Of a stretch of 64,000 nucleotides of DNA, positions 7,010 through 49,641 are shown piece by piece. The DNA is taken from assembly GCA_963575745.1 (NCBI GenBank), contig CAUYUJ010000181.1:372001-436000 (forward strand), written 5' to 3'. The stretch comes from Prorocentrum cordatum. Lineage: Eukaryota. Positions within the stretch are counted from its first letter, which is position 1, and each line of letters opens with the position of its first letter. A program made the translations under genes and the position numbers. The notes under the pieces were generated by a model. That model ran no database searches, had not been told where the DNA came from, and saw nothing but the letters and a program-made list of their open reading frames with translations.

Positions 7010-7012
7010 CGG

Positions 7013-7033
7013 CCTGCGCCAGAACGGCTAGGA
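7013..7033 (-). other. Degenerate DinoSL relic (TCCTAGCCGTTCTGGCGCAGG)
   Basis: 14/18 identity to the 3' 18 nt of DinoSL (TAGCCATTTTGGCTCAAG), located exactly at the microsatellite/ORF1 junction. Confidence 0.7.
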
Positions 7034-7346
7034 GAAGGAGGAGGAGGAGGAGGAGGAGGAGGAGGAGGAGGAGGAGGAGGAGGAGGAGGAGGAGGAGGAG
7101 GAGTGGGAGGAGGACGAGGAGGAGGACGAGAAGGAGGAGGATGAGGATAGGGAGGCACCAACTATACACCAACACCGATCCCAGCCAGGATCAACCTGGG
7201 CCCAGGATCGGTGTATACGCCCTCCTGCCATGGGCAGAATGCATATACACCGATCCTGGGCCTAGGATCGGCCTGGGCTGGATCGGTGTAGGTGTATAGT
7301 TGGTGCCCTCCGAGAGGAGGAGGAGGAGGAGGAGGAGGAGGAGGAG
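7031..7346. repeat. (GGA)n microsatellite interrupted by a palindromic MITE
   Basis: GGA runs on both sides of 7151-7311. Confidence 0.95.
7151..7311. mobile_element. Palindromic MITE/foldback element
   Basis: TIRs GGCACCAACTATACACC...GGTGTATAGTTGGTGCC, plus internal inverted ACACCGATCC/GGATCGGTGT units. Confidence 0.85.
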
Positions 7347-8339
7347 CATAACGCGAGGGAGGAGTCGGAGGATGATGTGGGAAAGGAAGAGCAGGAGGAT
7401 GAGGCATAAACGGCGCGGGAGAAGCCAGAAGAGGGGAGGAGGCGCGCCATGTCCTGAACGCCCCGCGCCCCCCGGGGAACATATGGTGATCAACTTCCAG
7501 GTCTCCATCTGCAGTAAGATGTGGAAGGAATTCTCCATCAGGAGACGGTTGCTCACTCCCTCCTCAGGCCGCTGCCAGGAGAGGGGCTGGGCGACCACCA
7601 CGGCTTGCCTCCGACCGCGTCCACGGCCGAGGCCCACTGAGAACACGACTCTCCTCTCTCAACTGACAATGTCCATTTCGGGAGTCGCCTCTCCCGCGTA
7701 CTGCTTGGTTCCCTCACCCACCTTTCAACCATTGTTGATTTAACATCCTGCTTTCGGTCGAACGAATTTTCGCACTCCACAACGGCGCTCCCGCTGCAGA
7801 GCAGGCCACAGTGGCGAATCGGCGCTTCGCCACCGTCGTTCCGAATGGCGCTCTTGCTCGAGCGAAGGGCCACTTTCTGGAACCGCCTTCTCCCCCGTCG
7901 TTACCGAACCCTCCTTTCCCCTCATCCTCCTTCCTCTGGTCCTCCTTACCCTCCTGCTCCTCCTACTCCTGCGTGTGAAATATTTTCATCTGGGCCGACT
8001 TGCCACTCTTAAGCAAGCGCAAGCCCGAGAAGATGACTCAGAGGGCTGATCAGGTCCTTTCGTCCATACCTTGCCAAGAGCGTTGCCCCGGCATGCAGCA
8101 AGTGGCAGGCCGAATCGTCTGGCGATGCGGTTTCCGCATGAAAGGAGCTCGAGTCCAACATGCGAAGAAGCGGATGGGACGTTAGGCCTGCTTCGCTCGT
8201 ATTATTGTGGCTAGGGCTGCTACACTCGCCCTTGACGCTGAGCCTCCCCCCAAGATTGTGTATACGTCCTCTTCCTTTCGAAGGTTTTCCCACCTTCGGT
8301 GACAACCCATGGGAGCCTCCCATACCATCTTGTCGGCTC

Positions 8340-8505
8340 CTGCGAATCGACGCGGATCGTCGCCACACCGACGCTGAATCGACGCTGAGCGACGCTGAAC
8401 GACGCCACATCGGCGCTGCCTCATCGACTTCCAGAGGCGAATCGACGCCAGTCGACGCTGAAGACGGAATCAAGAGGGCACGCCAAGCTCCCATGGCTTG
8501 CCGCC
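8340..8505. repeat. Dispersed repeat rich in (A)TCGACGC units
   Basis: Colinear homolog at ~56630-56795. Confidence 0.7.
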
Positions 8506-8936
8506 GCATCCCGCCCCCTTCGGGTCCGTCGAGGGGGCGCGCGGGGCCTCCTCGGCGCAAGCGCGCCTGCTCCTTCGGCCTCGGCCTCGCCTCCGAGGGG
8601 GCCTCTCGGGGGCCTCTCGGGGGGGAAAGGGCTCGTGTTTTCGGCTCCTGGTGCCTCTTTGGGGCCCCTTCGGGGGCCGTCTTGGGGCCCTCGTGGGCCG
8701 CTTTGAGCGCCTCAGTCCCTCGGGCGCACGCTGGCAGTGGACTGCGGATCCGTGAAGCCGACGAGCGGACGCTGAATATCCACAGATCGGGCAGCGCGCC
8801 CCCCGAAACATGCCGCCGCAGTGCCGCCTGGATCTGGCGACGGCGCGCGCCGATGCCGGAACTATGGAGGCGGGGCCCGTCGCCGATCCCACGCACCGTG
8901 CGGCACGTCTTCGCGTCCTCGATCAGTCTCGGCCTC

Positions 8937-9088
8937 GCTTTAGGTCGGGCATGTCCCCCCTTCAGGGGGATTTTGGACGGAGCATGAAACATAGTCAAAC
9001 ACCCTCAAACCTAGCCGAGCATATCATAAACAGCGTCCCTCGACTATTCTGCCACTGCTTTTGAAGAGGGACATGCCCGGCTCAAGCC
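8937..9088. mobile_element. MITE family A copy (TIR ~GGCTTRAGTCGGGCATGTCCCTCTACAGGGGGA)
   Basis: Inverted ends GTCGGGCATGTCCC...GGGACATGCCCGGC; six copies in the window. Confidence 0.8.
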
Positions 9089-9581
9089 TTGCCCACTCGC
9101 CCACCCCCACGGCAACTCCCCCGTGGCGGCGGCCTTGTGGATGTTGAACTTCCCCCAGCTCTGCCTCGAGCAGGGGGGCGCGGCGTGGCGCCGCGGAGAG
9201 GGGGCAGGGGAGGGCCTTTCGTGGGGGGGCAGGGGAGGGAGGGAGAGCCACGCCTCCCCTGCTCCACTGCTCCTCCTCCTCCTCCTCCTCCTCCTCCTCC
9301 TCCTCCTGCTCCTCCTCCTCCTCCTCTTTCTCCTCCTACTCCTCCTCCTTCTCTTCCTCCCTCATCCCTCCTCCTCCTCCTCCTCCTCCTCCTCCTCCTC
9401 CTCCTCCTCCTCCTCCTCCTCTCTCATCCCTCCTCCTATCCTCATCCTTCTTTCTGCAACGCATCCTCCTCCTCCTCCATCCCTCCTCCTATCCTCATCC
9501 TTCTTTCTGCACCCCATCCTCCTCCTCCCTCCTCTCCCTCCTCCTGCTGCTCCTACTGCTACTTCTACGGTCTGGAGCTTT

Positions 9582-9742
9582 GTATAGCGTGTCGCCACGA
9601 CGGCCCCAGCGACACGCTATACCTTGCGAGTAGATAGCGTGTCGTTCCACTCCGCAGAGCAGGAGGCCTGGGGACCGGGAAACGGATAGCGTGTCGCTCC
9701 AACGCGTGGCGGGCAAGAACAGGCGGAGCGACACGCCATCCA
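9582..9742. repeat. Dispersed repeat built of TAGCGTGTCGC/GCGACACGCTA inverted motifs
   Basis: Related copies at ~51148-51280, ~53127-53408 (split by GGA) and ~62493-62685. Confidence 0.7.
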
Positions 9743-12719
9743 CACATTCCAAGACGTACTACCACCGCCACGACCACTACGACTACCGCCGCTACTTCTA
9801 CTACGACCACCATGAGAAACATCCAACGCGCCCACATGTGAATAAGGATGGGGCATTGACGGGCTTTCACCGCGCAGCCCCTCCGAGCGCACAATCGCGT
9901 TGTTGCGCGAACATATGACAAAAGGACCCAGCGGCACATAGAAATTCACCAACTCCTCGGGGATATCTTTCACTGGAGGGCCCCCTGGGACTCTGCAGGC
10001 CATCGCATCTAGAGTAACAAAAACGCCAGAACGCGGGACAATTCCGACAAGCATTCCTGGAACGCAGCAGTCACGTGCGTCCCCCACCCCTCAGCCCGAC
10101 AGCAGCACGGTCCCACCCCCTCTGTGCTGGCACCCTCCCCTCTCAGGAATACTTCCGAGCAGTCGTTCAGATCCTTGACAGCTCACCGAGAGGAAGGTGG
10201 TGGGCTTCAGACACTCGCAACAGGAAACACGCATGTCAACATCTCCTCAGCCTCCTCCTCCTCCTTCTGCTCCTCCTTGTCTTCCTTCTTGTCATCCGCC
10301 TCCTTCTCCTCCTCCCCCTCCTCCCTCCGCTTCCCACATCCTCCTCCATGTGTGGTTGCGGAATAGAAAAACACGTGGTCCTCGTGTTCCGTCTCCTCCT
10401 CCTCCTCCTCCGCCTCTTCCTCGACCGTCTCGACAATTCCTTGCCCTCCAGGCTCCGTGGCGGTGGCGGTCCGCACTGGGGACACCCGTCGCTCTGAAGT
10501 GCTTCGGCGATTCCGCCCTGCCCCCCTCAGTCAGCAACACCGGCGACTGCGGAATACTGATGCAGGAGAGCCCAGAATCGAATCGATAAGTCGGATCGGC
10601 GATCGAACTTAATCGAATCGGCGCAAATCGGCAGCCAAGTCGGGAGAAGTCGAATCGGGAGACATCGGCAGGCTAGTAGGCCTCCATTGAGAAATCGTGT
10701 CCCTCCGAGTTTGTATGTTCATGTCATTCTTCGCTTCCCCAAAAAAGGGCGGCTGCGGGATACGGGTGTGCCCTCTGTGAAGATCTCGCGTCCCTGTCTA
10801 GTCTTACCCCGAGGGAGGGCCATGTGAAAGGCCCGCCGGACGATGTGGAGCTCGCTGCCCACGCCCTCGAGGGGCAGGTTGCCCAGCTTATGAGGCAACT
10901 CGGCCAGCCACGATATCTAAAACACCCGTCTGAATTCGAGGCTGGCACAGAACGTGCAGAACCCATGCCGTGCAAGTTGCGAGTTGCTGCGAGGAGCACA
11001 AGGCCACGCGGCATACGCCTGGATGCCCGGCCAACCATCACCGAGGCACCATGTCTAGAGTTCTTTTTGCTCAGCGGGCCATGCGACAATTTGACGAGCG
11101 CCTGCAACGAACTCGTAAGGTAAGGCATGCATCCCTGCCGTCCTCCCTGGACTATCTTCGCGGACGGGCCTGAATGTGGGGGACGTGCCCGCGCAGTCCG
11201 TATCCTCAGGACGGACGCCAGTCCCCCTCCCCCAGGCCACGATCTCGCTGCCGTCACCCGCGGCGGCAGGAACGGGGAGGGGATGTGGAAGCGAACACGT
11301 CGGGGGTCTGAGCCGAGCACCCCCGCGGAGGCATCCAGCAAGGGATGCCGAGGCGACTTCGTCCGCAGAGGCGTTTGCCCGAGGGGTCGACGCGGAGTGG
11401 CCCAAAAAACGCCCTCCGGACGAGCTGCAACCTGAGGGCTGAGGCAAGCTGCTGCGCGAGAGCGTCCGGCGGCGCTGACAGAGCAAGCGGGGCCCCCGCT
11501 ACCTCCGTGAAGAGTCTTGCCCACGGGGGGCCGTCCGCGACTGCAAAATGGCATGCGCGCTACTTCTTCGAAGGTCTGCTCCCCGTGGAGGTGGGGCCCC
11601 CCGCATCTTGCGCAAACTGCTCGGGTCAGGGGGGAAAGGCGGACATGGAGGAGGAGGAGGAGGAGGATGAGGAGGAGGAGGAGGAGGAGGAGGAGGAGGA
11701 GGAGGAGCGAGAGGAGGTGGAAGAGGAGGAGGGCGAGCAACAGGGAGAAGACTGACGAGGAGGACGATGCGACCCTCCGTCCCTCGTGGCCTCATGGGCA
11801 TGTCGCGCGGCATGATCCGCTGTATGCTGATCCCCTGCGGCGTCTCCTTCGCCTTGGCCTCGGAATGAAGCTCGCCTGCGCAGGCACAGAATCCGCCACC
11901 GTGCGCCCTGGCAGGGTGAGGCGTGGTAGAATGCCAGATGCCGTGTGCCTGGGCGCATGTGAATATTGTAAGGCTCCCCCTCCTCTCACCAAACAGTGGA
12001 GCGCACTGCGCCCCCACCCCCCTCAAGCGGCTCTTCGGGAGGACCGACGCTTCCCTCGGGCTCGCCAAGGCTCGCCACGAGGGAGGCCACCAACGCCGCC
12101 CCGATTGCCCAGCCCTGCCTCACGAGAAGAGGCGCCCAGCAGCCCACCAGAAGACCCCACAGGGGGCGCCGAAGGGGCGCCACGAGGCTTCCGCGACACC
12201 ACACAGAGGGCCAGGAGGCCCTCCAAGAAGGCCGCAATCACGCATACACACGCCAAGAGACATCCTGATTGAAAGTGTTGGATGTCCCGAGCCACTCGGT
12301 GCAACACGCTTCCGAGAAGAAGACGTCGGGGGAGCCGACAATGGCCCAATCTGGCCTCACGGAGGTCTCGAGAGGCTCCCACGGCCTGGGACCGCCCCGG
12401 CCGGGCGCCAAGAGAGCCCCAAGACAGCCAAACGGCGCCCCAGGAGGGGCCATCGCGGCTCCACGACAGCCAACAGAGGCGCTCCTCATGCGGCCAGGCG
12501 GGGCCCAAGACCGCCTGAAGACGGCCCCCTCCTCCTCCTCCTTCTCCTCCTCCTCCTCCTCCTCCTACTCCTCCTCCTTCTCCTCCTCCTCCTCCTCCCC
12601 GTCCTCCTCCTCCTCCGCCTCCTCCTCCTCCTCCTCGGCCGCAGGCCCCACGGGAGCCCTGAGCCTGCCCAGGTGGACCCCACGAGGGCCTCAGCCGACG
12701 TCTCTGCGACAGGTGTCAG

Positions 12720-36900: not shown

Positions 36901-38494
36901 CACCAGCCGCACCTCATCGGGCACCTGCAGGCCGCCCGGAAGCGCTGGGTGCTCGAGGCGGCGCGCGCCAAGGCCCCCTGGCAGACGGTCCGCGGGCCCG
37001 CAGGCGCCTCCGTCGCCACCGCGCGGCGGCTGGGCTGGCAGACGCAAGCGGCGCACTCGATCACCACCGGCGCCGAGGTCACCGACTTGCGCCCAGTGAC
37101 GCTTCGAGAGCTCCGCTGCCGCCGTGAAGCAGTACACCGAGCAGGCATACAACATGGAGTCGCTGTTCGTGGAGCCCGTGAGGGCGCTGCTCAAGCGACC
37201 CGTCAAGGGCAGATGGGCGCGGGAACACCAGACCCGCGTGCGAACGCTCTGGTGCGGAGGCAACTGGCCGGAGGCGAGGCTCCACGAGAAGGGCGCCGTA
37301 ACCGACCCCACCTGCAAAACATGCCATGCGGAGGACGGGACGGACCGCCACCGCACCTTCGTGTGCACCGCCAGGGACGAGCACCGCTGCGCCGTCGGCG
37401 GCCGGCACATCGCCCACCGCGGGGCGCGACCGTGGCCTGGGTCAGAGCAGCTCTGGGGCTGCGGCCTGGCGTGCGGCCCCGCCGAGGAGCTGGGGCTGTG
37501 GCAGCTGCTGTCGTCCAGCGAGAGCCTCGTTCAGGGCGACTGCGACGGCTTCGTCACAGGCGATGTGCACACGGACGGGAGTCTCCGCTACGGCTCCTAC
37601 GCGGCGCTGAGGCGCGGCGGTTGGGCCTTCGTACAATTGACGGAGGGCCTGGACATGAAGTTCGCGGTCTACGGGCCGCTCCCAGGCGCGCAGTGGGACC
37701 AGAGCATCTACAAGAGCGAGCTCATGGCGATCCTGCGCGTACTCCAGGTGGCCTGCCCGCCCGTGCGCGTCTGGTCCGACTGCCAGGCCATCCTGGGCGG
37801 CTTCGAGCGCGGCCCAGCCTGGGCCGACCACCCGGCCACCCTCCACAACGACTTGTGGCGGGAGTGCTGGGCCAAGATCGAGGATAACGGAGGGGTAGGA
37901 CCTAGAGGCATCAGCTTCAGCAAAGTGAAAGCGCACGCCACTAGACTGCAGAGGGCCCAAATGGGTCCAGATCGTTTCATTGGGAATCAATTCGCAGATG
38001 AATTTGCCAAGCTCGGAGCCCAGCGGCAGCAACATGCGCCGTGGCACAGAGCAGCATATATCCAGCGTTTTAAACTCGTTTCAGATGTGCTCGAGTTCGC
38101 AGCCTACGTAGCAGTACTTGGGCAAGGGCTCGTTGCCACCTCCGAAGGTTCGGAACCTCCCAGAGAGGCTCCGAGCCGTCCCAGCCCCCCTCCCCCCGTG
38201 CCTAGCGGGGAAGCGGAGGAGACTGCGGGACCTCTACTTCCGCCGCCTGGTCCCCCTCCTCCCCCCCTGGGGGTGCCGGATGGGGACGGAGGCAGGATCG
38301 AACGGGCCCGCGCCAGAGGGCACCAGGTGGTGCGCCTCCCCAGAGTGGTGTTCTGTCGGTCGTGCGCTAGGTACGCCACGGACCGATGGGTTGGACTCTT
38401 GACCAGATGCCCCGGGGGAAATCCCCGGACGATCTCTGGACGTTTAAAGCGTTTGTGGCAAGGCAGGCACCCCACCACGAACAGGCCGTTTTGA
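33950..38494 (+). pseudogene. ORF2 APE-RT-RNase H polyprotein, disrupted by stops and frameshifts
   Basis: EN: SAGVLI, GSVYL, WILGGDFN, RDYFIVS, PHLPV. RT: LLAKPSGGHRSLGL, FDLVKCFD, RGIVAGS, LFDDL. RNase H: VHTDGS, SELMAI, WSDCQ, HNDLW, KVKAH, GNQFADEFAK. C-terminal GH...FCRSC. Confidence 0.88.
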
Positions 38495-38610
38495 TGCTTG
38501 GCCCCACAATACCGCTCAGGAGAGGCCTGGGGTGAGGGCGCGCCAAGGTTTCAGGCTGATTGCACCCCTGAGGCGGTCCTCTCAGACCTAGCAGCGGAAA
38601 TCCTCGGTAA

Positions 38611-38764
38611 TCCTCCTCCTCCTCCTCCTCCTCCTCCTCCTCCTATTCCTCTTCCTCCTCCTCCTCCTCCTCCTCCTCCTCCTCCTCCTCTCCTCCTCCT
38701 CCTCCTCCGGCCCCCTCCCCCTCCTCCTCCTCCTCCTCCTCCTCCTCCTCCTCCTCCTCCTCCT
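38611..38764. repeat. (CCT)n microsatellite between two retroelements
   Basis: Direct inspection. Confidence 0.97.
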
Positions 38765-38788
38765 CAGGCTGGGACCAAGCTTGCAAAC

Positions 38789-40798
38789 ATGTCGTCGATC
38801 TGTCGTTCATTTAGGGTTGCTGACCTTGCTGGTATCGTGCACGAGGACTTGAACATTGCCGCTCATGGTTTCGATTTGGTTCGGCTGCCGCTTCATGGAA
38901 GGTGGCTATACAAGCGAAGCCGTAACGAGCAGCAGACAATGTTTGACCATGGGTGCAAGGTTTGGGATCGACATTGGCGCATCCAGGGTTTATTGCCTTT
39001 GCCAGATTTGCTGAAACGGCAAACGGCCGTTCTGAGGCCGACGGTTCGGGTCGACGCAGAACATTCTGAATGTATTGAAGTTTTGGCGCAGTGTGGAAAA
39101 CGCTTGGCAGTGACGGTAGAGGACAAAGATCCAAATTCATTATGGGCTTGCTCACCCTTGCACGCCATTATGCGTTGGATGTGGTTGATTGCCAGATCAG
39201 GGGATAGATGGTCCTTCAGTTTCGTGCCCGCTCATCGCGTAGTTGCTTTGTACAGGCACTGGTTTGACAACTCGATTCCCCGGAACTTGCTTCCCAAGCG
39301 GTTCCCGATCTCATTGTCGACTATACCGTACGTTTACCATACCATTAAGCGCAAATGCTGGCGCAATTCATACCCATGTTGCTACCAGTCTGCATCCGCA
39401 CATCAATGCACTAAGCCACGACACTCCTGCGTGAGGAATATCATCAGCTTCGCTCGTATGCCAGGGAGACGCGTCTGGAGGGCTGCAGGCAGAGCACTTG
39501 GTTACCTTGTTCGCAAGTTTACGCCTGGCTGGTCAACTTCTAGCTTGCACACCGCATTTGATGAAGTCCGGCGAGCCGCTGAACAACTTCAAGGTCCAGC
39601 TTCTGATGTTCCACAGTGTGAATTGTGCCATGCTTCGATGGCCTTTCCGGGCATGTGTGTTGCAGATGCCGGCCAAGCATACGAGTCCATCCAAGTAGAG
39701 CATATAAATTCTACACTTGAATCTTTGTTCGAGGTAGCCGCTGGTGATCCGCACCACGCTTTTCTGCAAGTTTATCACAACCGGAAGCGACCTGTCTCTG
39801 CAGGGGGCCGAGTTGGGCTCGATTTTCGTGACCGTATAGTTTTCGCTTTGGGATCGTTGCAGAAGATTTTCAGTGCATTTTTGGAGATGCGTTTCTTTCG
39901 TTTTGGTGATTTCTTCTTGGTCCAACACGCTGGGATACCAATCGGAGGACCTCTTAGCCCAGCTATATTGGATTCAGTTTTGTCGAAGCAAGAGCATAAT
40001 TTCGACATGGAGTATCCTCTTCGTGCACGGCTCTTCTTTGCCACTCGGTACGTTGACGATTTGCTGCTTGGGTCTCGACGGTTATGCCGGTCATGTCTCT
40101 TGCGCGTCATACCCGTTGTTTATGGTGACGTGATCTCCTTCGACGCGGACGACTCTTGGCATGTGCATGGCGGAGTTGTGATACAACCATTCCTGGATGG
40201 TGTGATCCATTTTGCTTGGGACGGTCTCAGTGTTGCTTTTGAGCATCGTAACATGGAGTTTGCCTTTACTGCGAACTGGGACACCATCAAGAAGCGATCG
40301 CTCCAGCCAGCACCCGGTCTCGTGTCTAAGGATGATCTTCAATACCAACGCGGCGAACTCATAGGAAGACTTCGGCGCTGGCGTGCGATCAGTGACTGCA
40401 TGGTGTCTTCTGTTACCGCTGTATATTGTGACATTCTATGTTTTCAGCACCACGGGTACGATAGCAAACACATCCAGGCATTGTTCACGAACTTGCCGCT
40501 GCACGCAGATCTGTTGGCAGTGATCGACATTGTCCGGAAATTCGCTTACGTGCATCGCCGGCTCAGCCCCCAATCGCAAGGTCAGATGCTTGCTCAAGTG
40601 TTATCGCTTGGATTGCCTACTGAGTCCTGGCCTGGCCTTCCGATGGCATACCAGAGTGGCGTGAGGCAAAATGCGCCTGCTGAATCCGAGGCCGCCCAGC
40701 TAGCTTGGGCATCTCTTCTTCTGGTCACGTCGGAGACCAAATTCACTGCAGCAGGGCTCCACGTCGCACAGATGTGTCTCTGGATGCAGCAGTTGTGA
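38789..40798 (+). CDS. Intact Penelope-like / TERT-related reverse transcriptase (~669 aa) with Cys/His-rich insertions; no endonuclease in the retained portion
   Basis: VEDKD; PYVYHTIKRK; RNIIS; motif A VADAGQAYESI; motif B' QHAGIPIGGPLS; motif C RYVDDLL; FLD; HGY. No stop or frameshift, and lower GC than the flanks. Confidence 0.88.
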   Translation: MSSICRSFRVADLAGIVHEDLNIAAHGFDLVRLPLHGRWLYKRSRNEQQTMFDHGCKVWDRHWRIQGLLPLPDLLKRQTAVLRPTVRVDAEHSECIEVLAQCGKRLAVTVEDKDPNSLWACSPLHAIMRWMWLIARSGDRWSFSFVPAHRVVALYRHWFDNSIPRNLLPKRFPISLSTIPYVYHTIKRKCWRNSYPCCYQSASAHQCTKPRHSCVRNIISFARMPGRRVWRAAGRALGYLVRKFTPGWSTSSLHTAFDEVRRAAEQLQGPASDVPQCELCHASMAFPGMCVADAGQAYESIQVEHINSTLESLFEVAAGDPHHAFLQVYHNRKRPVSAGGRVGLDFRDRIVFALGSLQKIFSAFLEMRFFRFGDFFLVQHAGIPIGGPLSPAILDSVLSKQEHNFDMEYPLRARLFFATRYVDDLLLGSRRLCRSCLLRVIPVVYGDVISFDADDSWHVHGGVVIQPFLDGVIHFAWDGLSVAFEHRNMEFAFTANWDTIKKRSLQPAPGLVSKDDLQYQRGELIGRLRRWRAISDCMVSSVTAVYCDILCFQHHGYDSKHIQALFTNLPLHADLLAVIDIVRKFAYVHRRLSPQSQGQMLAQVLSLGLPTESWPGLPMAYQSGVRQNAPAESEAAQLAWASLLLVTSETKFTAAGLHVAQMCLWMQQL

Positions 40799-41108
40799 AG
40801 TATGATGCGCACGTGTGCTTCGTTGTTGTCGCTCTGTCCCGCCCTTTCTTGGGATGGATTCTCTTTGATTCCTTGTAGCAGTGAGTAGCATTTACAATGA
40901 ATTGTCATAGCAGTGATCGGGATGCGATTGTTCATGTAATCCGTAGCTCCATATTCCGGTTCAGGGGTCCACTGAGTGGCCGCTGGCATGCCCCAGGACG
41001 CGCTCAAGTAGCACAGCGGGCGTCACCCCTGATAAAAAGAGCTTTGCTCCGAGGCCCTGGGAGGCAGGTAATTTGTCAATTATTTGCTGAACAGTTTCAC
41101 TTAGCAAC

Positions 41109-41192
41109 GGAGGAGGAGGAGGAGGGGGAGGAGGAGGAGGAGGAGGAGGAGGAGGAGGAGGAGGAGGAGGAGGAGGAGGAGGAGGGGGAGGG
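41109..41192. repeat. (GGA)n microsatellite at the 3' end of the PLE-like element
   Basis: Direct inspection. Confidence 0.97.
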
Positions 41193-41890
41193 GGCCAAAG
41201 AGGTCCCAAAGACGGCCCCAGGAGAGCCCCTAGACGGCCCAGGAGTCCTCCAAGACGCCCAAGACGGCCTCCAAGACGACGCTGGAGCACCCCAAAAGGG
41301 CCCCAAGTCGGCCCAGAGAGGCCCCCAAGTCGGCTCCCGACGGCGTCAGGCAGGCCAGGAGCCGACCAAGACGGCCCAAGATGAATCTAAGATGGCCCAA
41401 GACGGCCCAAGAGGACCCAAGAGGTCTCCAACACGGCCCAAGAGGCCTCCAAGAGCGCCTCCAGAAGGCCCGACGAGGCCAACATCATTGATTTGCCTCA
41501 AGTGTTTCAATGAGTTTGGCAATTGCTTTTTGTTCGGCCTTCCGACGGCCCGAGACGGCCCAGGAGCCCCAAAAATCACCCCAAGATCGCCCAAGAGGCC
41601 TCCAGGATGGCCCCAGAACAGCCTAAGAGGCCCCCATGACGGCCCCAAGAGGGCCCCAGAACGGCCTAAGAGTCCTCCAAGACGCCCAAGACGGCCTCCA
41701 AGACGACGCTGGAGCACCCCAAAAGGGCCCCAAGTCGGCCCAGAAAGGCCCCCAAGACGGCTTCCGACAGCGTCAGACGGGCAAGGAATGCACTAAGACA
41801 GCCGAAGAGGCCCCCAAGATGCATCCAAGATGCATCCAAGAGGCTCCAAGGAAGCTCCCAGGAGGCTCCAAGAGTGCCCCCAGAGAATCC
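41193..41890. repeat. CCAAGA-rich ~11-bp degenerate minisatellite element with a perfect 75-bp internal duplication
   Basis: 41243-41317 equals 41670-41744. The same CCAAGA family occurs at ~2110-2240, 12350-12530, 28035-28340, 43800-44070, 52140-52510, 61700-62135 and 63905-64000. Confidence 0.85.
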
Positions 41891-42149
41891 CATGATGCCC
41901 CCTGCACCTCCTCCTCCTCCTTCTCCTCCTCCTTCAGATCTTCCCCGCACTCCTCCCCCAAGTGCTCCCCGAAGGGTTTCCACAACGGTTTGGGAAACAC
42001 ACGGTCCGATAGTTTGGCAGACTTCTTGCCGAAACGATCTGCCACATGGGCGATTCCAAAAGGCAGGGGGCGGCGGTGACTCGCCGTAGGCGTCTTCGAT
42101 ATCCACTGTAGCCCACGTGTAACACGACTGCGCTTCCTTCAAAATGGAG

Positions 42150-42720
42150 GGCGGCATTGGCGTGGACATCCCCACCACGCTGTGGATCAGCACGGGCGTT
42201 ATGGCGGCACCAGGAGAAAACCTTTCCGATGCTGTGGTGGAGACTACTGGTGTCCCTCGCGCTACTACCAGCGATCTACCACATTTGGACCAAGGGGCGC
42301 CTCGTCTACGGCAGCCATGGCTTCCAAGAAGTGCACCGTGGACGCGGCAGCTCGTCTACTCGTTCGGTCCGACGCCGTCGCCAAGCACCCCGACATGGCT
42401 GAGGTGCCGGCGTTGGAGGAAATGGACAAGTGCTTCGATCGGGCTTTCTGGGCACGGGCTGCCTGTCGCAGCTCGCCGCTTCCATTTCCTAATCACAGCT
42501 CGCGGTTCCAATTTCCAAGCTCATTGAGACGTGGCGCCAGACGTGCTGTGGAGCCCGCCCACCACCCCTCCCAGAGGCAGGCCGTGGACGAGGCCGCCCG
42601 GCATGCCGCTGGGACGAGCACTGGAAAAGGCACTCGCTTGCAAAGATTGGAGAGCCATGGCACGTCGCTGCTCGAGACCGGGGGATCTGGCGTGCGCAGG
42701 CCGAGGGCTACGCGCAATGG
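42150..42720 (+). pseudogene. Highly degraded LINE RT C-terminal fragment
   Basis: Short frames LLPAIYHIWTKGRLVYG and GRGRGRPACRWDEHW resemble the post-RT region of RTE-like LINEs. Confidence 0.4.
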
Positions 42721-42816
42721 CTGTCTTCCACAACCCCTCTTGCCTTCGGGGAGGGACCCCCCCCCCTCCCCTCCCTGGTTTTTGTTTGAAGGTTTTGCGA
42801 GCTGTCGGGGGCCACT

Positions 42817-43717
42817 CGTTTACGAGGGAGCTCGTGTACGCGGACGACACGTTGCTCATAGACTCCGACCCAGCCCTCGTTCAAGAGCTGATGCGCTGCA
42901 TTGAGGAGTGCGGGGGCCAGTGCGGGCTGCAGTTCAATTGGGGCAAGTTGGAACTTATGAAAGTAAGGGCCGAAGCTAATATTTTGGGACGCAACGAGGT
43001 CCCCATCCCAGCCAAGCAATCATTAATTTATCTCGGGACGTCTCTTGCTGCGGACGGGCGCATAGGCACAGAACTGAGTCGGAGAATTGGGGCGGCCAGA
43101 AGTGACTTCAAGGTGCTTGCAAGAATATGGTCGCATTCGACTTTGAGTAGGAGACAGAAACTACGTATATTTAATGCTTGCGTTGTTTCCAAACTCACGT
43201 ATGTATTATTCACTGCGTGTCTTAACCAGGCCGAGCGAAGACGGCTCGACGGGTTCCAGAATTATTGTCTCAGACGTATTTGCAGAGTCTCTCCGTCGTA
43301 CATCAGTCGGGTGTCGAACCGTGCAGTTCTGCAGATCAGCCAACAGACGCCTCTGAGCCATAGTCTTGCGCGTAGACAGATGTTGTACATGGGCCATTTG
43401 GCGAGAAGACCAGACGAGGATCCAGTCAGAAGCTCGGTATTTGAGCCGGGCGGTCTGGTTCTCAAGAGCCTTCTTGGGAAAAGGAGAAGAGGCCGCCCGA
43501 GACAGTCTTGGGGGCCCATGGTGCTGAAGCACTGCTTGAATGTTGCCGGCTCCCATGAGCGACTTGCTGATTACTTCCGCCGAGAGGGCGGTGCAGCTCG
43601 CAGGTGGGAGCAGGCGGTCAAGGCATGGGCGGCGTGCTGAAGGCATCCGTTTCCGTGCACATTTTCACCCATTGCTCACGCGCTGTGGCCGGCGCAAGGC
43701 TTCTGGACTGGACTGGA
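42817..43717 (+). mobile_element. 5'-truncated RTE-like LINE with (CTGGA)3 tail and 11-bp TSD
   Basis: Open frame ELVYADDTLL...GLQFNWGK...YLG...RRIGAA...KLRIFNACVVSKL...RRRGRPRQSW to the stop at 43640; TSD CGGGGGCCACT at 42806-42816 and 43718-43728. Confidence 0.92.
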
Positions 43718-44289
43718 CGGGGGCCACTTTTTCGGCCAGTGAGAGGGCCTATGTTTGACACCAGGACGCACATCGAGGACCCCCCCCCTCTTTTGACCGA
43801 CCGTCTCCAAGATGGCCCCAAGAGGCCCCCCAGGGCTCCCAAGAGGCCCCCAAGAGGGTTCCACGAGCGCCCCAAGAGACCCCAAGAGGGCTCCAAGAGG
43901 CCCCCAAGAGGCTCCCAAGAGGCCCCCGAGCGGCCTCAGAGAGCCCAAGATGACATGCAAGATGGCTTAAGATAGCTCAAGCTGGATCAAGATGGCTCCC
44001 AAGATGTTGCAAGAGGCCCCAAGACCGCTCCAAGACGGCTCGAGATGGTCACGGAGCCTCCCCAGGAGGCCGGAGACGACCCCAACACGCCGTCCAGGCC
44101 AGCCTCCCTCGCGAGCGTAGGCCCACGACCTTGTGCTGGCCGCGATGGGTGTTACCATCACTTAATCCCTGGGTCGTGAACCCTCATTGTCGGTGGTCTG
44201 TTTAATGATCTAGGACTAAATTCCTCCACTTTTCCCCTGTTTCGGCTCTGTCCCGTCACCAAGCTCGGCGCGCTCAACTGGGTAGGGTA

Positions 44290-44707: not shown

Positions 44708-47700
44708 TCATCCGCGCTGGCCGCCGCGCACCCTCGCCCGCGTGAGCTGGACCCTCGTGAGGGGTACAGCAGACTGTGCCACCTCTAAAGTAAGAGGTTC
44801 AGGTGGCATGAAGAGCGAGCGGAGATTCACGAACAGGAGATAGGCAGCAGCGGGGACGGTAAGACTAGAGATGGTCGGGAGAAAAACACCAGAGCGACAG
44901 ATCGGACAGTAATGAACTTGGGAGCACAAAACAGATTCGAGAAGCTGGATGAAGCGTGGGCAGCACCAATAGTGGACGAAGCTGTCGGGGCCGCCGCAGC
45001 CCAGCAGACAGCACAAGGGCACACTGTCGTGAAACCGCACGGCTGTGATCCAACTACCAGATAGAGTCTTCCATATCGCATTCACTAAAGGGCCTCTCAT
45101 TCGAATGAGAAGCTCGCGGACCTCTTCCCATTTCACGTGCACCAGGACCTCCGCGGCCTCAGGGAACCAACGGGCCCAACGCTCCGAGAAAACAACGTCC
45201 AGGGAATCGGGGAAGAGTTCTCGTTGGAAAATCTTCAGCAGTCTACCTTGCATCTTCACATTCTTAGGGGGGCGAGAGAGGGCGGAGGCAGAGGTCAGGA
45301 GCTCCAGCGCAGCCTCACGGGCGATCGATCCAGCCCGAGCCAGGTCCCGAGAGCGGGAGAAGCCACCGGCCGCATCCGAGAGATGCTCCACAAACGCTGG
45401 TGACTGCCAGAAGCGCGGGGACAGTTTCCCTGCCGAGAGATCAACGATCTCAAGATGGCGAGAAGCAAACTCAGACAGCTGTTCCAAGAGCATTCGATAT
45501 TCAGGGAACGTGTTGACAGCTGCTCTCATAAGAGTGGCACAACTCAAGGACCTCACGCTCGTGAGTTGCGGTCCTCCCCACAGGTGAAGCGAGAACCAGC
45601 CACTCCGAGGAAGCGTGCAATGGGGGACTTTGAAGAGAGAGGCGAAGGAGGCATGCTCAATACGAGAGAGAGGGGCAGGAAGGGCAGGGCAAAGCTCAGG
45701 GATGGGACAGAATTGGGCGACATAGGTAAGGGTTGAGACGGCACGGCTAGAGTACATATACTCTGTGATGGCCGGCGGCGCGCCGACTTTGGCAATCTGC
45801 ACTGTACGTCCTGCCCATTTCAAAAGAGGCTTGTGCCAGCTCTCAGTGGTCACACTGGGCCCAAGAATCATGCCAAGATAGGTCAGGGAACTCACAACCT
45901 GGAACGCTCCCCAGTCGGGGAGAAAGTTCTGAAGCCAGAATCGATACTTGGCGACGAGGGTGGCCGAGAAGGGGCCCGCAAGAGGAACCAGGAAACACTT
46001 GGCATACTTGAGCTTGAGACAAGCGAGGGCCTCACTGCAGTCGAATACGGCCTTCAGCTGAAGTAGATCACGAAGCGCTGAAACCACAGATCCAATATCA
46101 TCAGCACAAGCCCTGGCCATACTCATCTGGCGTTCTCGAGCTCGACCTATGAGATCTTCTCGCAGCTCGCCAGGTGGCACATCATTCTGAGCTTCCAGCC
46201 GCTTCCACATATCCACGAGAAAGGGGTGGCTCCCGACGGCGAAAAGGGCGCCAGACCCTGGGCATCCTTGAATGATCCCCGACATGATGTAAAACAAGAA
46301 ACAGCATACTCTGCCGAAAGTACCAAAGCAGCGAACGTTCGTATACAACGTCTCTACGAAGATCTGCATGGGCAGCGGCACATGGAAGGCAGCAAGCGTC
46401 ATCATGATCCATCGGTGCGCGACCGACGGGAAGGCCTGTCCGTAATCGAAAGATATCAAGGCTGGAAGCCGAGCAGCGGCATCGGGGAGCATCGAAACCA
46501 TTCGGGCTCGCACGTCGAGCTCGAGGATATTTAGACCAAAATTCCTCCCTCCGACGAATCCCCTTTGAGAATAGTGGACTTTATCACCCAGTCGACGTGA
46601 TAAACTCTCGAAAACGACGCCCGTGACCAGCTTGTTCGACGATTGTTTTAGTCCTAGAGGCCGGGTAGCTTCAGCGTTCCGAACGATCATATGGGAATCC
46701 TGCTCCTCATCTCCTTTGGCTATGAATACTCCTCGAACATCATTGAAGGCTGGTAACATGCTCCTCCCACTTAATAACCACCAAACCACCTCATCTAGAA
46801 TGTTAAGACCGTGTGGATGTCGTTTCCATGCTCGATAGGGGAGGCCATCCAACCCTGGGGAACTATCTTCCGCACGTTCGATACGCCGTTGAAGAGCATG
46901 CAGGGATGGAGGGGGAAGGTCAGAAAGATCAATACCATCACAATGCTGACGAAGATAAGATTGGGCAGCTGGAACATTGATGGATTTTTCTGCAAACACG
47001 GGTCGCCAATGTTCCCCAAGCTCTTGGAGGACAGCAGCTGGTGACGAGACAACCGACTCCCCATCGGAGGCTCGTACTCCTTGCAGGGTCATTCTGCGAT
47101 CAAAAGGCGTCCAGAGGCGGCCCCTGCGATGCGTGCACTTAAGCCGTCGCCTGGCTTTCGCTCTGGCGGGCTCTGCACTGGCATTCGCAATGTCTTGTTT
47201 GTATTTAGCTTCTCGTTGTTTGGCAATAGTGAGGTGAATCTCATTGGCTCGCCTCTGGAACTCTGGCGGGTCAATCAACTCCACTGTCCCCTCCAGCAGG
47301 TTGATCTGTAGAAACTCCTTACCTGGAGCGTGAGATCGCCAAACACGGTGCGCTAGACGCACATCCTGCCTCCAGAGGCATCTCCCGATACTTTTGATGA
47401 CCAGGAGCTGGGTAAAACTCGATGATGGTGATTTTCGAATCAAGGAGTCCCGAGCGATCTTGGCGGCCTCACGCATCATCTCAGTCTGAAACGCTAGCCT
47501 CAAGGGTGGTGTCATCCTGCTCTGGTCACACTCAGCCTCTACCGCTTCCAGGAACCGAACGTAGTCAGGATGTTCGCAGACTTCGGGGGCAACTGGCCTC
47601 TCAGAGGCCGGGATAGATCCAGCAGGTTTGAGGGTGACCTGGATCGGGGCGTGGTCGGATATCCCTTTCTTGCTGAGAATATCAGGGTATTCAACTACCT

Positions 47701-48433
47701 TCCCTTCGACGGACATCTGCAGGAGCATCCACCCAGGCATCGAAATAAACTGCCGATCTATGTAGCTGAGCATCCGCGTCGGCTGGTAATGATGGGTAGG
47801 TTCTGGCACTTCTAATTCCACCATCCTCCTCAACACCTCCATCCACCCACCGTCCTGCGTACTCCTCCACTCCTGAAGATACCGAAGCGTCTGCTCATCT
47901 ACTTCCGCCTCAGGTTCCTTGCGTGGCGGCGTGCATGCAAAGTTGAAATCACCTGATATGACGACAAGCAACGCAGACGGGTCCGCCTCTGCGACCTCGA
48001 GGTCGTACTTAATTGAATCCAAGGCCTTCTTCTTAGCTATGGATCCTAGCTGGTAGTTGTGAACATTGTAGTGGACGACGGCAAAATCCCCAAAATCAAT
48101 CGCAACTCTGAGAACTCGACCTGGGACCTGAACTTCTGGAAGAATCAGAGGGGCCTCGGAACCAAGGTGCAGGAATTTCGGCACAAAGGTCGTGACACCT
48201 CCGGCATTGGAACTTGAACAGAACGAGCTAAATGCGGTATATCTATGATGCAGATTGTGCTGATAAAGAAGGTCTTGGACTTGTAACTCACTACCGTGGC
48301 ATTCTTGCACCCCTATGATACTGCCTGGAAGAAAGAGTTGACGGAGGAGATGGGCTTTCCTTTCTTGGAGGGGGAGTTCGTGATGGAAGAGGGCTCGGGC
48401 ATTCCAGGATGATAGTATCAAAGGCAAGATCAT
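44708..48433 (-). CDS. LINE ORF2: APE endonuclease + reverse transcriptase + C-terminal CCHC motif (~1241 aa from ATG 48433)
   Basis: EN: SWNARAL, GVQECH, AGGV, NVHNY, ISGDFN, YIDR, SDHAPI. RT: SSPGLDGLPY, RPLGL, QRGFVGGR, FDYGQAFPSV, SGIIQGCPGS, ACADDIG, YLG. C-terminus: CLLGC...HYWCC. Confidence 0.95.
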   Translation of the reverse strand: MILPLILSSWNARALFHHELPLQERKAHLLRQLFLPGSIIGVQECHGSELQVQDLLYQHNLHHRYTAFSSFCSSSNAGGVTTFVPKFLHLGSEAPLILPEVQVPGRVLRVAIDFGDFAVVHYNVHNYQLGSIAKKKALDSIKYDLEVAEADPSALLVVISGDFNFACTPPRKEPEAEVDEQTLRYLQEWRSTQDGGWMEVLRRMVELEVPEPTHHYQPTRMLSYIDRQFISMPGWMLLQMSVEGKVVEYPDILSKKGISDHAPIQVTLKPAGSIPASERPVAPEVCEHPDYVRFLEAVEAECDQSRMTPPLRLAFQTEMMREAAKIARDSLIRKSPSSSFTQLLVIKSIGRCLWRQDVRLAHRVWRSHAPGKEFLQINLLEGTVELIDPPEFQRRANEIHLTIAKQREAKYKQDIANASAEPARAKARRRLKCTHRRGRLWTPFDRRMTLQGVRASDGESVVSSPAAVLQELGEHWRPVFAEKSINVPAAQSYLRQHCDGIDLSDLPPPSLHALQRRIERAEDSSPGLDGLPYRAWKRHPHGLNILDEVVWWLLSGRSMLPAFNDVRGVFIAKGDEEQDSHMIVRNAEATRPLGLKQSSNKLVTGVVFESLSRRLGDKVHYSQRGFVGGRNFGLNILELDVRARMVSMLPDAAARLPALISFDYGQAFPSVAHRWIMMTLAAFHVPLPMQIFVETLYTNVRCFGTFGRVCCFLFYIMSGIIQGCPGSGALFAVGSHPFLVDMWKRLEAQNDVPPGELREDLIGRARERQMSMARACADDIGSVVSALRDLLQLKAVFDCSEALACLKLKYAKCFLVPLAGPFSATLVAKYRFWLQNFLPDWGAFQVVSSLTYLGMILGPSVTTESWHKPLLKWAGRTVQIAKVGAPPAITEYMYSSRAVSTLTYVAQFCPIPELCPALPAPLSRIEHASFASLFKVPHCTLPRSGWFSLHLWGGPQLTSVRSLSCATLMRAAVNTFPEYRMLLEQLSEFASRHLEIVDLSAGKLSPRFWQSPAFVEHLSDAAGGFSRSRDLARAGSIAREAALELLTSASALSRPPKNVKMQGRLLKIFQRELFPDSLDVVFSERWARWFPEAAEVLVHVKWEEVRELLIRMRGPLVNAIWKTLSGSWITAVRFHDSVPLCCLLGCGGPDSFVHYWCCPRFIQLLESVLCSQVHYCPICRSGVFLPTISSLTVPAAAYLLFVNLRSLFMPPEPLTLEVAQSAVPLTRVQLTRARVRGGQRG

Positions 48434-48467
48434 GCCTCTCTCGTCGCGCCAATGGCGCTGGAGCCCG

Positions 48468-49484
48468 CTAAAGAGACCACTGAGGAGGTGCTGCGACGTG
48501 TCCTGATGCATGGAAGCGTTGGAGCACAAGATCTTTGTCCAGCCCCAAGGCGAGCATGTTGGGCACACACCATTCCAGGACGGGCTCCTCGTCTCCTGGT
48601 TTGGGCGTGAAACGTACCAGAGGCTTCCAGTTCGCCGACAGCTCGCCTTTCGCCTTGTCGGTGAAGAGGCGCAGGTTGCCATCGACCTCTTGGAAGGCCT
48701 TCCGCAACTGCTTGAGGCCGAGTTCCTTCTTGACCATGGCGGGGTTCTTGTCCGTGCTGACGTATATCTCACAATTCGCACCAAGCATGTCTTTGCACGC
48801 GTGATGTTCCCACTGTCCATTTCCGAGTCGTAGTGCTCCCATCGCCTGGGCCACCTTCCTTGCGGCGTAGGTGGCGTTCCCCTTGATGCGGAAGACGAAC
48901 CGCTTCCCTGCAGGCTCCGACTGGTAGTCATAGTCATCTGGTGCAAGCTGGGCACGGGCCAACCAGTCAGCCAGAGCTCCTTGAACTGCACTACGACTGC
49001 ATACATTCTTCGTCCTGGCGACGATGATGCACGGGTCAACCATCCTGTTGAAGGACGTGTCGGTGACCACGGTCTGCGGCTCTTCGTTCTTGATGCACTG
49101 CAATAGTTCCTGTAGCTGGGAGACTCGTCGCTCCAGGGTCGCGACACGGTTGTTGGTGCTCTTCTGCTCGGCCTGCAGCTCCGCGTAGCGCATCTCCACC
49201 CTCTTGGTGATGGCGTCGCAGTTGGCCGAGATGGTGGAGCTGAACTGCGTGACACTGGCGTGCAGCTTGGCGACGGCTCCGAGCATCTCTCCACGGGTGG
49301 AATCAACCACAGCGCGCAGATTAGCAACAGCTTCAAGAGGATCCTCGGCAAGACGGGCAGTCTTGCTCGGGGGGCTCGTACTGCCACCTGTCGCTCCAGC
49401 CTCCTGGGACGGGAACGTGGCCATGGCGTCGAGTTCCTCTGCCAGCCGTCGAGCCTCGGGGCTGCTCGGCATGGCATGGGCCAT
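48468..49484 (-). CDS. LINE ORF1 (338 aa; N-terminal coiled coil, putative RNA-binding C-terminal half)
   Basis: Uninterrupted ORF directly upstream of ORF2, with the heptad segment VEMRYAELQAEQKSTNNRVATLERRVSQLQELL. Confidence 0.85.
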   Translation of the reverse strand: MAHAMPSSPEARRLAEELDAMATFPSQEAGATGGSTSPPSKTARLAEDPLEAVANLRAVVDSTRGEMLGAVAKLHASVTQFSSTISANCDAITKRVEMRYAELQAEQKSTNNRVATLERRVSQLQELLQCIKNEEPQTVVTDTSFNRMVDPCIIVARTKNVCSRSAVQGALADWLARAQLAPDDYDYQSEPAGKRFVFRIKGNATYAARKVAQAMGALRLGNGQWEHHACKDMLGANCEIYVSTDKNPAMVKKELGLKQLRKAFQEVDGNLRLFTDKAKGELSANWKPLVRFTPKPGDEEPVLEWCVPNMLALGLDKDLVLQRFHASGHVAAPPQWSL

Positions 49485-49619
49485 GCCACACAGTCAGATG
49501 CCAAAAAGATCTCACAGCGCCAGGCGGCTCCTGTGAGGATCGTGGGGTGAAGGCTGCGGGACTCGAGCCAGCCCCTCGCCTGCGTTCAAGCTAAAGCCGC
49601 CAGGGCACCGCGGTTTTAA

Positions 49620-49641
49620 CTTGAGCCAAAATGGCTACGGA
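49620..49641 (-). other. Perfect 22-nt dinoflagellate spliced leader (TCCGTAGCCATTTTGGCTCAAG)
   Basis: The plus strand reads CTTGAGCCAAAATGGCTACGGA, the exact reverse complement of DCCGTAGCCATTTTGGCTCAAG with D=T. Confidence 0.97.

Follow-up and report, generated by a model that had tools for sequence, protein, structure and literature searches.

Penelope-like elements (PLEs) and telomerase form sister groups, and how diverse PLEs are beyond animals and green algae has been sparsely surveyed. Two described groups, Naiad of animals and Chlamys, have an endonuclease (EN) located N-terminally to the reverse transcriptase (RT); full-length Athena and Coprina elements have no nuclease and reside at chromosome ends with telomere-like repeats. 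In the 64-kb stretch of DNA analysed here (from contig CAUYUJ010000181.1; hereafter the window), positions 38766–41196 most probably represent one young, dead-on-arrival, 5′-truncated insertion of a Penelope-like retrotransposon with an N-terminal nuclease. Like Chlamys elements, this copy is 5′-truncated, is located at microsatellite sites and has no canonical hammerhead ribozyme. The order of domains in its family is also that of Chlamys, namely a putative N-terminal GIY-YIG-type domain without CCHH cysteines, an R-rich block, a DK motif and an RT with a long insertion between motifs A and B′. The R, H, E and N residues of the nuclease are shared as well, as are 3′ tandem repeats and C-terminal extensions in some families.

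The window copy and its full-length relatives

The copy contains an open reading frame (ORF) at 38789–40798 of the forward strand, which comprises 669 codons from the first ATG at 38789 to the TGA at 40796–40798 and encodes the C-terminal part of a linker, the RT fingers and palm, and a thumb-like region. The surrounding stop-free frame at 38495–40798 has 767 codons from stop to stop; the chance of a random stop-free frame of this length is about 1e-15 at 52% GC. In the numbering of the ORF protein (P0001), residue 1 corresponds to position 38765. An earlier sequence-only reading had described a clean ORF of about 669 amino acids with several RT motifs and no GIY-YIG domain. The length agrees, each motif that was quoted (DAGQAYESI, QHAGIPIGGPLS, RYVDD and the Cys clusters) is located in the ORF, and a GIY-YIG domain is found neither in the ORF nor in the six-frame translation of the window. 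The interval of 38765–41192 that was given matches the insertion rather than the ORF: its start, 38765, is the final base of a (TCC)n tract, and its end, 41192, falls within a (GGA)n tract some 400 nt beyond the stop codon.

Family homology begins with the first homologous codons at 38766–38788 (forward strand), inside the conserved linker between EN and RT, and this is taken as the 5′ truncation point. In 9 of the 16 relatives tested, tblastn alignments start at 38768–38780, right after the (TCC)n tract. The 122-residue fragment P0016 is 98% identical to the window copy over its residues 19–122, with both mismatches at the junction; upstream of the junction it continues as MPFLAALVVRHTRVVVQRPEK, which fits the family consensus ..TR.......K, whereas the window there encodes poly-Pro derived from the microsatellite. 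The results of tblastn and six-frame hidden Markov model (HMM) scans reveal no EN domain, no upstream linker and no C-terminal extension in the window. A nuclease encoded upstream across an intron was considered and rejected, as no six-frame match is present in the window.

In a maximum-likelihood tree of 50 rows (LG+C20+F+G4; support as UFBoot/SH-aLRT), P0001 is the sister of the EN-containing P0006 with support of 99/75, and the two fall within a 99/99 clade whose other members are the EN-containing P0005, P0007, P0008 and P0009 and one short fragment. Judged from these sequence comparisons, the nuclease is missing from the window copy by truncation. As the copy includes neither a nuclease nor the start of the linker, it would not move by itself. 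Of the two origins that the sequence-only reading had proposed, a 5′-truncated PLE with an N-terminal EN is supported by the N-terminal domain of the relatives, the homology start, P0016 and the tree. A distinct zinc-binding clade without EN is not supported, given the homology start in the linker, the upstream sequence of P0016, the window scans and the EN-containing neighbours in the tree; the Cys motifs are family-wide, yet 33 of 35 long members carry a nuclease-like domain. Longer copies do have an EN-like domain, one half of what that reading had said would count against it; as for the other half, no described clade with these Cys motifs was found, and CxC, a defining motif of Naiad and Chlamys, is absent.

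Relatives of the ORF protein were collected by a HMMER scan over 1.84 billion representatives (50%-identity clusters), which yielded 642 at E ≤ 1e-3, 317 at E ≤ 1e-10 and 61 at E ≤ 1e-30. The closest relatives, P0005–P0008, are 36–38% identical, and the match of the query begins at about residue 357–688, so that these proteins have an additional 350–690 residues at the N-terminus; for instance, P0001 is 38% identical to the 1828-residue P0006 over 573 residues, corresponding to P0006 residues 680–1245. Word-index protein searches gave 3, 7 and 2 matches, none with an informative name; the one aimed at longer forms found P0005 and P0006 again. Full-length relatives have 1100–1828 residues.

In the N-terminal domain of 14 aligned full-length members, Y243, Y252, G254, R271, H275, E325 and N337 (P0005 numbering) are invariant. 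The resulting pattern, Y..YxG..R..EH..E..N, has the order and spacing of GIY-YIG nucleases, and the domain core contains no conserved Cys. By eye, the E-x12-N module EAAHIAYSLPKAN resembles EN rows published for PLEs, such as EAIHVKLEKPSLN, in the available alignments of Craig et al. (2021; PMC8557442). With an HMM built for the domain, 33 of the 35 relatives that have 600 or more residues ahead of motif A are positive (14 of these 33 went into the HMM); the two without a match have 619 and 642 upstream residues, which is a borderline length. The domain is followed by an Arg-rich block, e.g., SRRQRLSPRARRQRADK (columns ~905–925 of the full-length alignment), and then by a linker of about 330 residues which extends to the DK motif and in which Y422, G437, P438, L450, W463, R602 and W629 are conserved in the 14 full-length members. 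The residue pattern and the architecture suggest that the N-terminal domain is a GIY-YIG-type nuclease, with nuclease activity as a prediction.

Many members also have a C-terminal extension of about 400 residues, which is Gly-rich, includes a stretch that looks like a coiled coil by eye, and has a W-rich end; carriers include P0005–P0008, P0026, P0039 and P0121. The extension has no Pfam match. The number of residues after motif C is 530–716 in the extended type and 175–213 in the short type, and 250 in P0001.

A metagenome scan returned nine loci, most of them shorter than 3.5 kb. One metagenome contig (L008) carries at 6521–11278 (forward strand) a 1586-residue family ORF with a GIY-YIG-like motif and DAGQ, which reaches the contig end; the 6.5 kb upstream of this ORF contains no repeats and no termini were found. 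A tandem copy at this locus was rejected on inspection of the contig. No relative was found in the viral contig scan, and the protein Atlas gave leads only, in the form of clusters from rotifers and streptophytes that carry HTH_animal, DUF8422 or RVT_1.

Ends of the copy and alternative origins

Between the ORF and the 3′ end, the copy has an untranslated part at 40799–41108 (forward strand) which is unique within the window. An Rfam search of the copy detected no family match and no hammerhead ribozyme. The (GGA)n tract at 41109–41196 (forward strand), ending in GGGGGAGGGGGCC, is read as a 3′-terminal repeat plus a priming junction, and its last 57 nt (41140–41196) read (GAG)nGGGGGAGGGGGCC. 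These 57 nt constitute the right arm of an inverted repeat, to which the left arm at 38709–38765 (reverse strand; GGCCCCCTCCCCC(TCC)n, 57 nt) is 100% complementary. Within the window, the 16-mer GGCCCCCTCCCCCTCC occurs exactly at the two arms only, with 0.03 occurrences expected by chance. Outside the left arm, a further (TCC)n tract at 38611–38708 (forward strand) might be the target microsatellite as it was before the insertion, or else a 3′ tail belonging to an upstream element resembling a long interspersed nuclear element (LINE). Tandem Repeats Finder reports (TCC)51.7 over 38611–38765 and (GGA)27.7 over 41109–41191.

PLE insertions are often 5′-truncated, frequently have an inverted 5′-truncated copy at the 5′ end and favour microsatellites, and absence of a hammerhead ribozyme is described among such PLEs, according to the available text of Craig et al. 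(2021; PMC8557442). The 5′ truncation, the 5′ inverted copy, the microsatellite flanks and the lack of a hammerhead ribozyme in the window all fit these published habits, as seen in one copy. In addition, both strands of the DNA are cut and extended by a PLE protein in purified form (PMC11167929).

By analogy with PLE biology, the element protein would bind its own RNA and nick DNA at a (GGA)n·(TCC)n polypurine/polypyrimidine tract, and the 3′-OH at the nick would prime reverse transcription. cDNA synthesis would have halted about 560 codons before the 5′ end, leaving a copy that lacks the nuclease together with the first part of the linker. The segment at 38766–41196 would then be the main, bottom-strand-primed copy with the 3′ end (GGA)nGGGGGAGGGGGCC, and the segment at 38709–38765 would be a 57-nt inverted copy of the 3′ end, made as a second short cDNA primed on the top strand and placed head-to-head with the main copy. 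This model, including the inverted short copy, is drawn from a single insertion and is proposed on that basis.

In the window as a whole, 32 (CCT)n/(AGG)n tracts are present in both orientations, totalling 1779 nt (2.8%), and several of them are located at retroelement junctions; such tracts may be preferred landing sites of retroelements in this genome. A third such tract, at 12523–12636, opens with GGCCCCC(TCC)n and differs by one mismatch from the 16-mer of the arms; this might be a solo tail fragment from the same family of elements.

The element is low-copy, since it is covered to a depth comparable to the unique flank: in the sequencing run that covers most of the stretch, the summed contig depth is 0.7–13 over the element, somewhat higher toward the 3′ end, and 1.2–5 over the unique left flank. 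Other copies or contigs show 12 variant sites within the ORF, of which 8 are non-synonymous and 4 synonymous, an approximately neutral ratio from few sites. The intactness of the frame had been interpreted previously as a sign of youth or selection. Youth is consistent with the intact frame and with sister contigs that diverge by only about 1–3%; selection is not supported by the near-neutral ratio. A 173-nt RNA-library contig covers 39085–39257 with one mismatch, which is not proof of transcription. The element has 52% GC and a GC content at third codon positions (GC3) of 0.53; the adjacent RNase H ORF has 66% and 0.77, respectively.

Several findings weigh against the reading of the copy as a truncated insertion of an N-terminal-nuclease PLE. 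As for the nuclease, Pfam makes no GIY-YIG call in 22 and in 14 long relatives (0/22 and 0/14), save one RE_Eco29kI match at E 0.2; PHROGs and NCBIfam have no match to the nuclease-like domain, and a profile search of the PDB using the full-length rows finds no nuclease. In hhalign comparisons with eight T4 GIY-YIG proteins (SegA/B/C/F/G, I-TevI, I-TevII and EndoII), the GIY..YIG stretch alone is aligned, with a probability of 2% and P 0.025 (P 0.19 for an HNH control). As for the linker, no conserved Cys pair corresponding to the CxC (zf-CDGSH-like) motif is present in the 14 full-length members, and in the GxKF/Y region a conserved P..GR is located about 75 residues upstream of DK, with the published pattern not recognisable. 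The C-terminal extension is present in all four complete closest relatives but not in the window copy. Finally, the flanking microsatellites are inverted, not direct as expected from simple insertion into one tract, and (CCT)n/(AGG)n tracts are frequent in the window, so that the microsatellite association rests on one copy.

These points have to be set against other explanations of the same features. An autonomous PLE without EN like Athena or Coprina, which would start from the ATG at 38789 and prime at free DNA ends such as (GGA)n·(TCC)n breaks, would account for the intact 669-codon frame and for a window without any nuclease, and lineages without EN are known to arise within EN-containing PLE clades according to the available text of Craig et al. 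(2021; PMC8557442). The abrupt homology start in the middle of the linker, exactly at the repeat junction, is difficult to reconcile with such an element, as is the near-identical P0016, which goes on upstream in family sequence. Moreover, the sister and every long member of the clade contain EN, variant sites look neutral, and telomere-like repeats are absent from the flanks, which consist of (TCC)n and (GGA)n; this origin is thus considered very improbable. A single-copy host gene domesticated from a PLE RT and kept for a cellular function is at least equally hard to sustain. The low copy number with a depth resembling that of the unique flank, the open frame, the full set of catalytic motifs and the RNA-library contig at 39085–39257 would be in keeping with it, but that contig may come from DNA, 8 of the 12 variant sites are non-synonymous, and the frame starts inside a conserved domain. 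The setting, with a LINE-like element, microsatellites and a satellite of very high abundance around the copy, and the GC3 of 0.53 versus 0.77 in the neighbouring ORF, also argue against a host gene, and the probability assigned to it is the lowest of all the alternatives.

The explanation that deserves the most weight among the alternatives concerns the ends rather than the coding part: the inverted (TCC)n and (GGA)n ends might be chance neighbouring microsatellites or an assembly fold-back, and not a product of the insertion mechanism. The abundance of such tracts (32 per 64 kb, in both orientations), the breaks of short-read contigs at both microsatellite tracts and the further GGCCCCC(TCC)n edge at 12523 are all compatible with this. 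In contrast, the 57-nt arms are 100% complementary and include a 13-nt non-repeat signature which is exact nowhere else in the window (0.03 expected), and both tracts directly adjoin the ends of the copy. A chance or artefactual origin of the ends is therefore unlikely, although it retains an appreciable probability. Truncated insertion of a PLE with an N-terminal nuclease remains the preferred explanation of the copy itself.

The RT and its conserved cysteines and histidines

The ORF alone is matched weakly by general RT models: Pfam RVT_1 is below threshold (E 4.1e-5; 23.8 bits versus a cut-off of 29.6), and a phmmer search of the PDB with the single ORF protein gives no match. With the 82-row family profile, the best PDB match is Tetrahymena TERT (6d6v_A; E 2.8e-5), aligned from before motif B′ through motif C, followed by group II intron RTs (E 5.8e-4 and 4.6e-3) and human TERT (E 0.09–0.12). 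Motif A, DAGQAYESI, is located at 39665–39691 (residues 301–309), and D301, A302, Q304 and E307 are at least 90% conserved. Motif B′, QHAGIPIGGPLS, at 39923–39958 (residues 387–398) aligns to the QKRGIPQG motif of Tetrahymena TERT, and motif C, RYVDD, at 40046–40060 (residues 428–432) is also covered by the TERT profile alignment; all these motifs are on the forward strand. In a comparison by eye, motifs A, B′ and C agree with the rows of the published fig. S1 of Craig et al. (2021; PMC8557442).

The spacer between motifs A and B′ (39692–39922, forward strand) contains an insertion like the insertion in the fingers domain (IFD), with a D-to-Q distance of 86 residues in P0001; the family median is 86, with a range of 83–125 (n = 88). 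Distances counted here on fig. S1 of the same paper (PMC8557442) are about 56 in canonical PLEs and about 83–104 in Naiad and Chlamys. Upstream of the RT, the N-terminal PLE motif DK is found as VTVEDKDP at 39110–39133 (forward strand) in the context VTVEDKDPNSLWAC; D682 and K683 are invariant in the 14 full-length relatives. This resembles the DK rows published for Chlamys, IITEVDK....L..VC, with the context IITEVDKCTGTLVAVC, in the available alignments (PMC8557442). The DK motif, the 86-residue spacer and the top rank of TERT among the PDB matches of the family profile are consistent with the PLE/TERT-like RT proposed previously, and by its sequence the family RT is of a divergent PLE/TERT type.

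The RT core contains Cys and His residues at three places. KCW..CC..HQCTKPRHSC at residues 197–222 (39356–39430 counted from C198) constitutes a 25-residue insertion between RT1, TIKRKC, and RT2, VRNIISF, which together occupy 39341–39451 on the forward strand. CELC at 39617–39628 (forward strand; residues 285–288) lies 13 residues ahead of the motif A aspartate, and CRSC at 40085–40096 (forward strand; residues 441–444) lies 9 residues past motif C. In the 82-row family alignment, conservation is 99% for C198, 100% for C215, 99% for H220 and 96% for C222 (67–69 aligned rows), 100% for C285 and 99% for C288 (76 rows), and 95% for C441 and 97% for C444. All eight residues are present in 46 of the 55 rows that cover every one of the eight columns; in P0012, C288 and C441 are both lost. 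The clusters noticed earlier in the single sequence are thus borne out at eight positions (95–100% conserved), with the exception of the 'CC' at 205/206, which is kept in 7–10% of aligned rows. As the motifs occur in both superclades of the family, they are ancestral to the family.

The conservation suggests two structural zinc sites. One would comprise C198, C215, H220 and C222 in the RT1–RT2 loop. The other would join C285/C288 and C441/C444, each pair supplying one half, in a cross-brace under the palm; from the general topology of polymerase palms, the places before motif A and after motif C are expected to share one edge of the palm sheet. We know of no report of zinc sites within the RT of any PLE or TERT. 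Cys/His motifs within RT are not mentioned in the main text of Craig et al. (2021; PMC8557442), which describes PHD-finger insertions in five Chlamydomonas families. The strings DAGQA, EDKD, PIGGP and IPIGG are also absent from the supplement of that paper, which is a weak negative as its protein file is incomplete and similar cysteines in some Chlamys RTs are possible.

The family shares with TERT the style of motifs (D...AY..I, Q..GIP.G..S and R..DD) and the long insertion between motifs A and B′, which is shorter here than the IFD of TERT (about 125 residues in human TERT, counted on the available fig. S1). Unlike TERT, Pfam detects no TEN, Telomerase_RBD or other domain here, and the family carries a nuclease-like domain. 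It is also transposon-like, in contrast to TERT, being multi-copy, with copies that are truncated and with hundreds of clusters at 50% identity. Like Athena and Coprina, this copy encodes no nuclease; however, those elements are without a nuclease at full length and are found with telomere-like repeats at chromosome ends, whereas the relatives here contain EN and the copy is flanked by (TCC)n and (GGA)n.

Host, neighbouring sequences and place of the family

A relic of trans-splicing in the window bears on the host. At 49620–49641 (reverse strand), a perfect 22-nt dinoflagellate spliced leader, TCCGTAGCCATTTTGGCTCAAG, is located directly 5′ of a 1625-residue ORF at 44711–49585 (reverse strand). 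The literature occurrences of the 21-nt core of this leader are all from dinoflagellates among the matches listed. Owing to this relic, a dinoflagellate is the likely host. The ORF has a weak RVT_1 match, with (AGG)14 immediately upstream and more (AGG)n just beyond the stop; together with the leader, it resembles a retroelement mRNA that was trans-spliced and then retroposed into an (AGG)n tract. The possibility that this ORF is a second copy of the element was rejected, as the two are unrelated.

One family member is from the transcriptome of Yihiella, a dinoflagellate. The only named near-identical fragments, P0016 and P0041, are 98–100% identical to 38768–39070 and 39458–39676 of the window and are labelled 'Pyramimonas sp. 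CCMP1952' in EukProt; this label is at variance with the spliced-leader relic, perhaps because the data set is mixed or wrongly labelled.

Repeats and retroelement remnants surround the copy. A LINE-like remnant upstream (37100–38491, forward strand) contains an ORF whose RNase H domain passes the Pfam cut-off (E 1.8e-6), and a LINE-like remnant downstream (42528–43637, forward strand) contains an ORF resembling the C-terminal part of an RT. At 41197–42000 and 43800–44000, a satellite of 10–11/21-nt units with a consensus of approximately CCAAGACGGCC is present; in the sequencing run that covers most of the stretch, its summed contig depth is 10,000–36,000 versus about 1–5 for the unique flank, and it also occurs in marine metagenome runs.

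The family differs from Chlamys in several respects. It has no CxC motif, its linker is longer (about 330 residues) and GxKF/Y is not recognisable; motif A is DAGQAYE instead of DF..LYTN, motif B′ is GIPIGGPLS instead of GIPMG, and the nuclease has about eight additional residues between YIG and R..EH. Eight conserved Cys/His residues are located within the RT of this family, whereas the main text by Craig et al. (2021; PMC8557442) mentions none for Chlamys. As flanking repeat, (GGA)n is present here and (CA)n or (C)n in Chlamys. The host is probably a dinoflagellate here, whereas Chlamys is recorded from green algae, from spike mosses and from Physarum in the available text (Craig et al., 2021; PMC8557442), and also in Ectocarpus, before which PLEs were unreported in the TSAR supergroup according to the portion available of a 2025 paper (PMC12477816).

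Physarum_Pp1 is likewise a PLE with an N-terminal EN, an IFD and no CxC, but its nuclease is reduced and is without the R/H/E/N region, all four residues of which are invariant in this family (available text of PMC8557442). The Naiad elements of animals resemble this family in that their domain order is permuted, a KR-rich block is present, most members have an IFD and insertion is at microsatellites. Features of Naiad that are not seen here are the CX2-5CxxC and CCHH zinc fingers of the nuclease, CxC, the DKA motif and (TA)n targets.

Searches of the literature on PLEs in dinoflagellates, haptophytes, Symbiodiniaceae, alveolates and stramenopiles found no such family described, and dinoflagellates, prasinophytes and Pyramimonas are unmentioned in the available text of Craig et al. 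(2021; PMC8557442). The family comprises 642 clusters at 50% identity, which fall into two superclades with strong support. Among PLEs with an N-terminal EN it is a distinct variant, and it may be a new lineage. It is tentatively proposed, at somewhat less than even confidence, that it represents a third, undescribed and deep lineage of N-terminal-nuclease PLEs beside Naiad and Chlamys, which would have dinoflagellates and other marine protists as its native hosts, would provide the first PLEs of Alveolata, and would have lost CxC and carry two zinc sites in RT.

The feature in the window is itself ordinary, namely a dead, truncated retrotransposon copy in repeat-rich DNA. If the family is indeed present in dinoflagellates, the range of PLEs would extend to alveolates, and the family would also show that whole lineages escape motif-guided searches that rely on CxC. 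The eight Cys/His residues of the RT core further offer a testable idea, that telomerase-like polymerases may be stabilised by metal.

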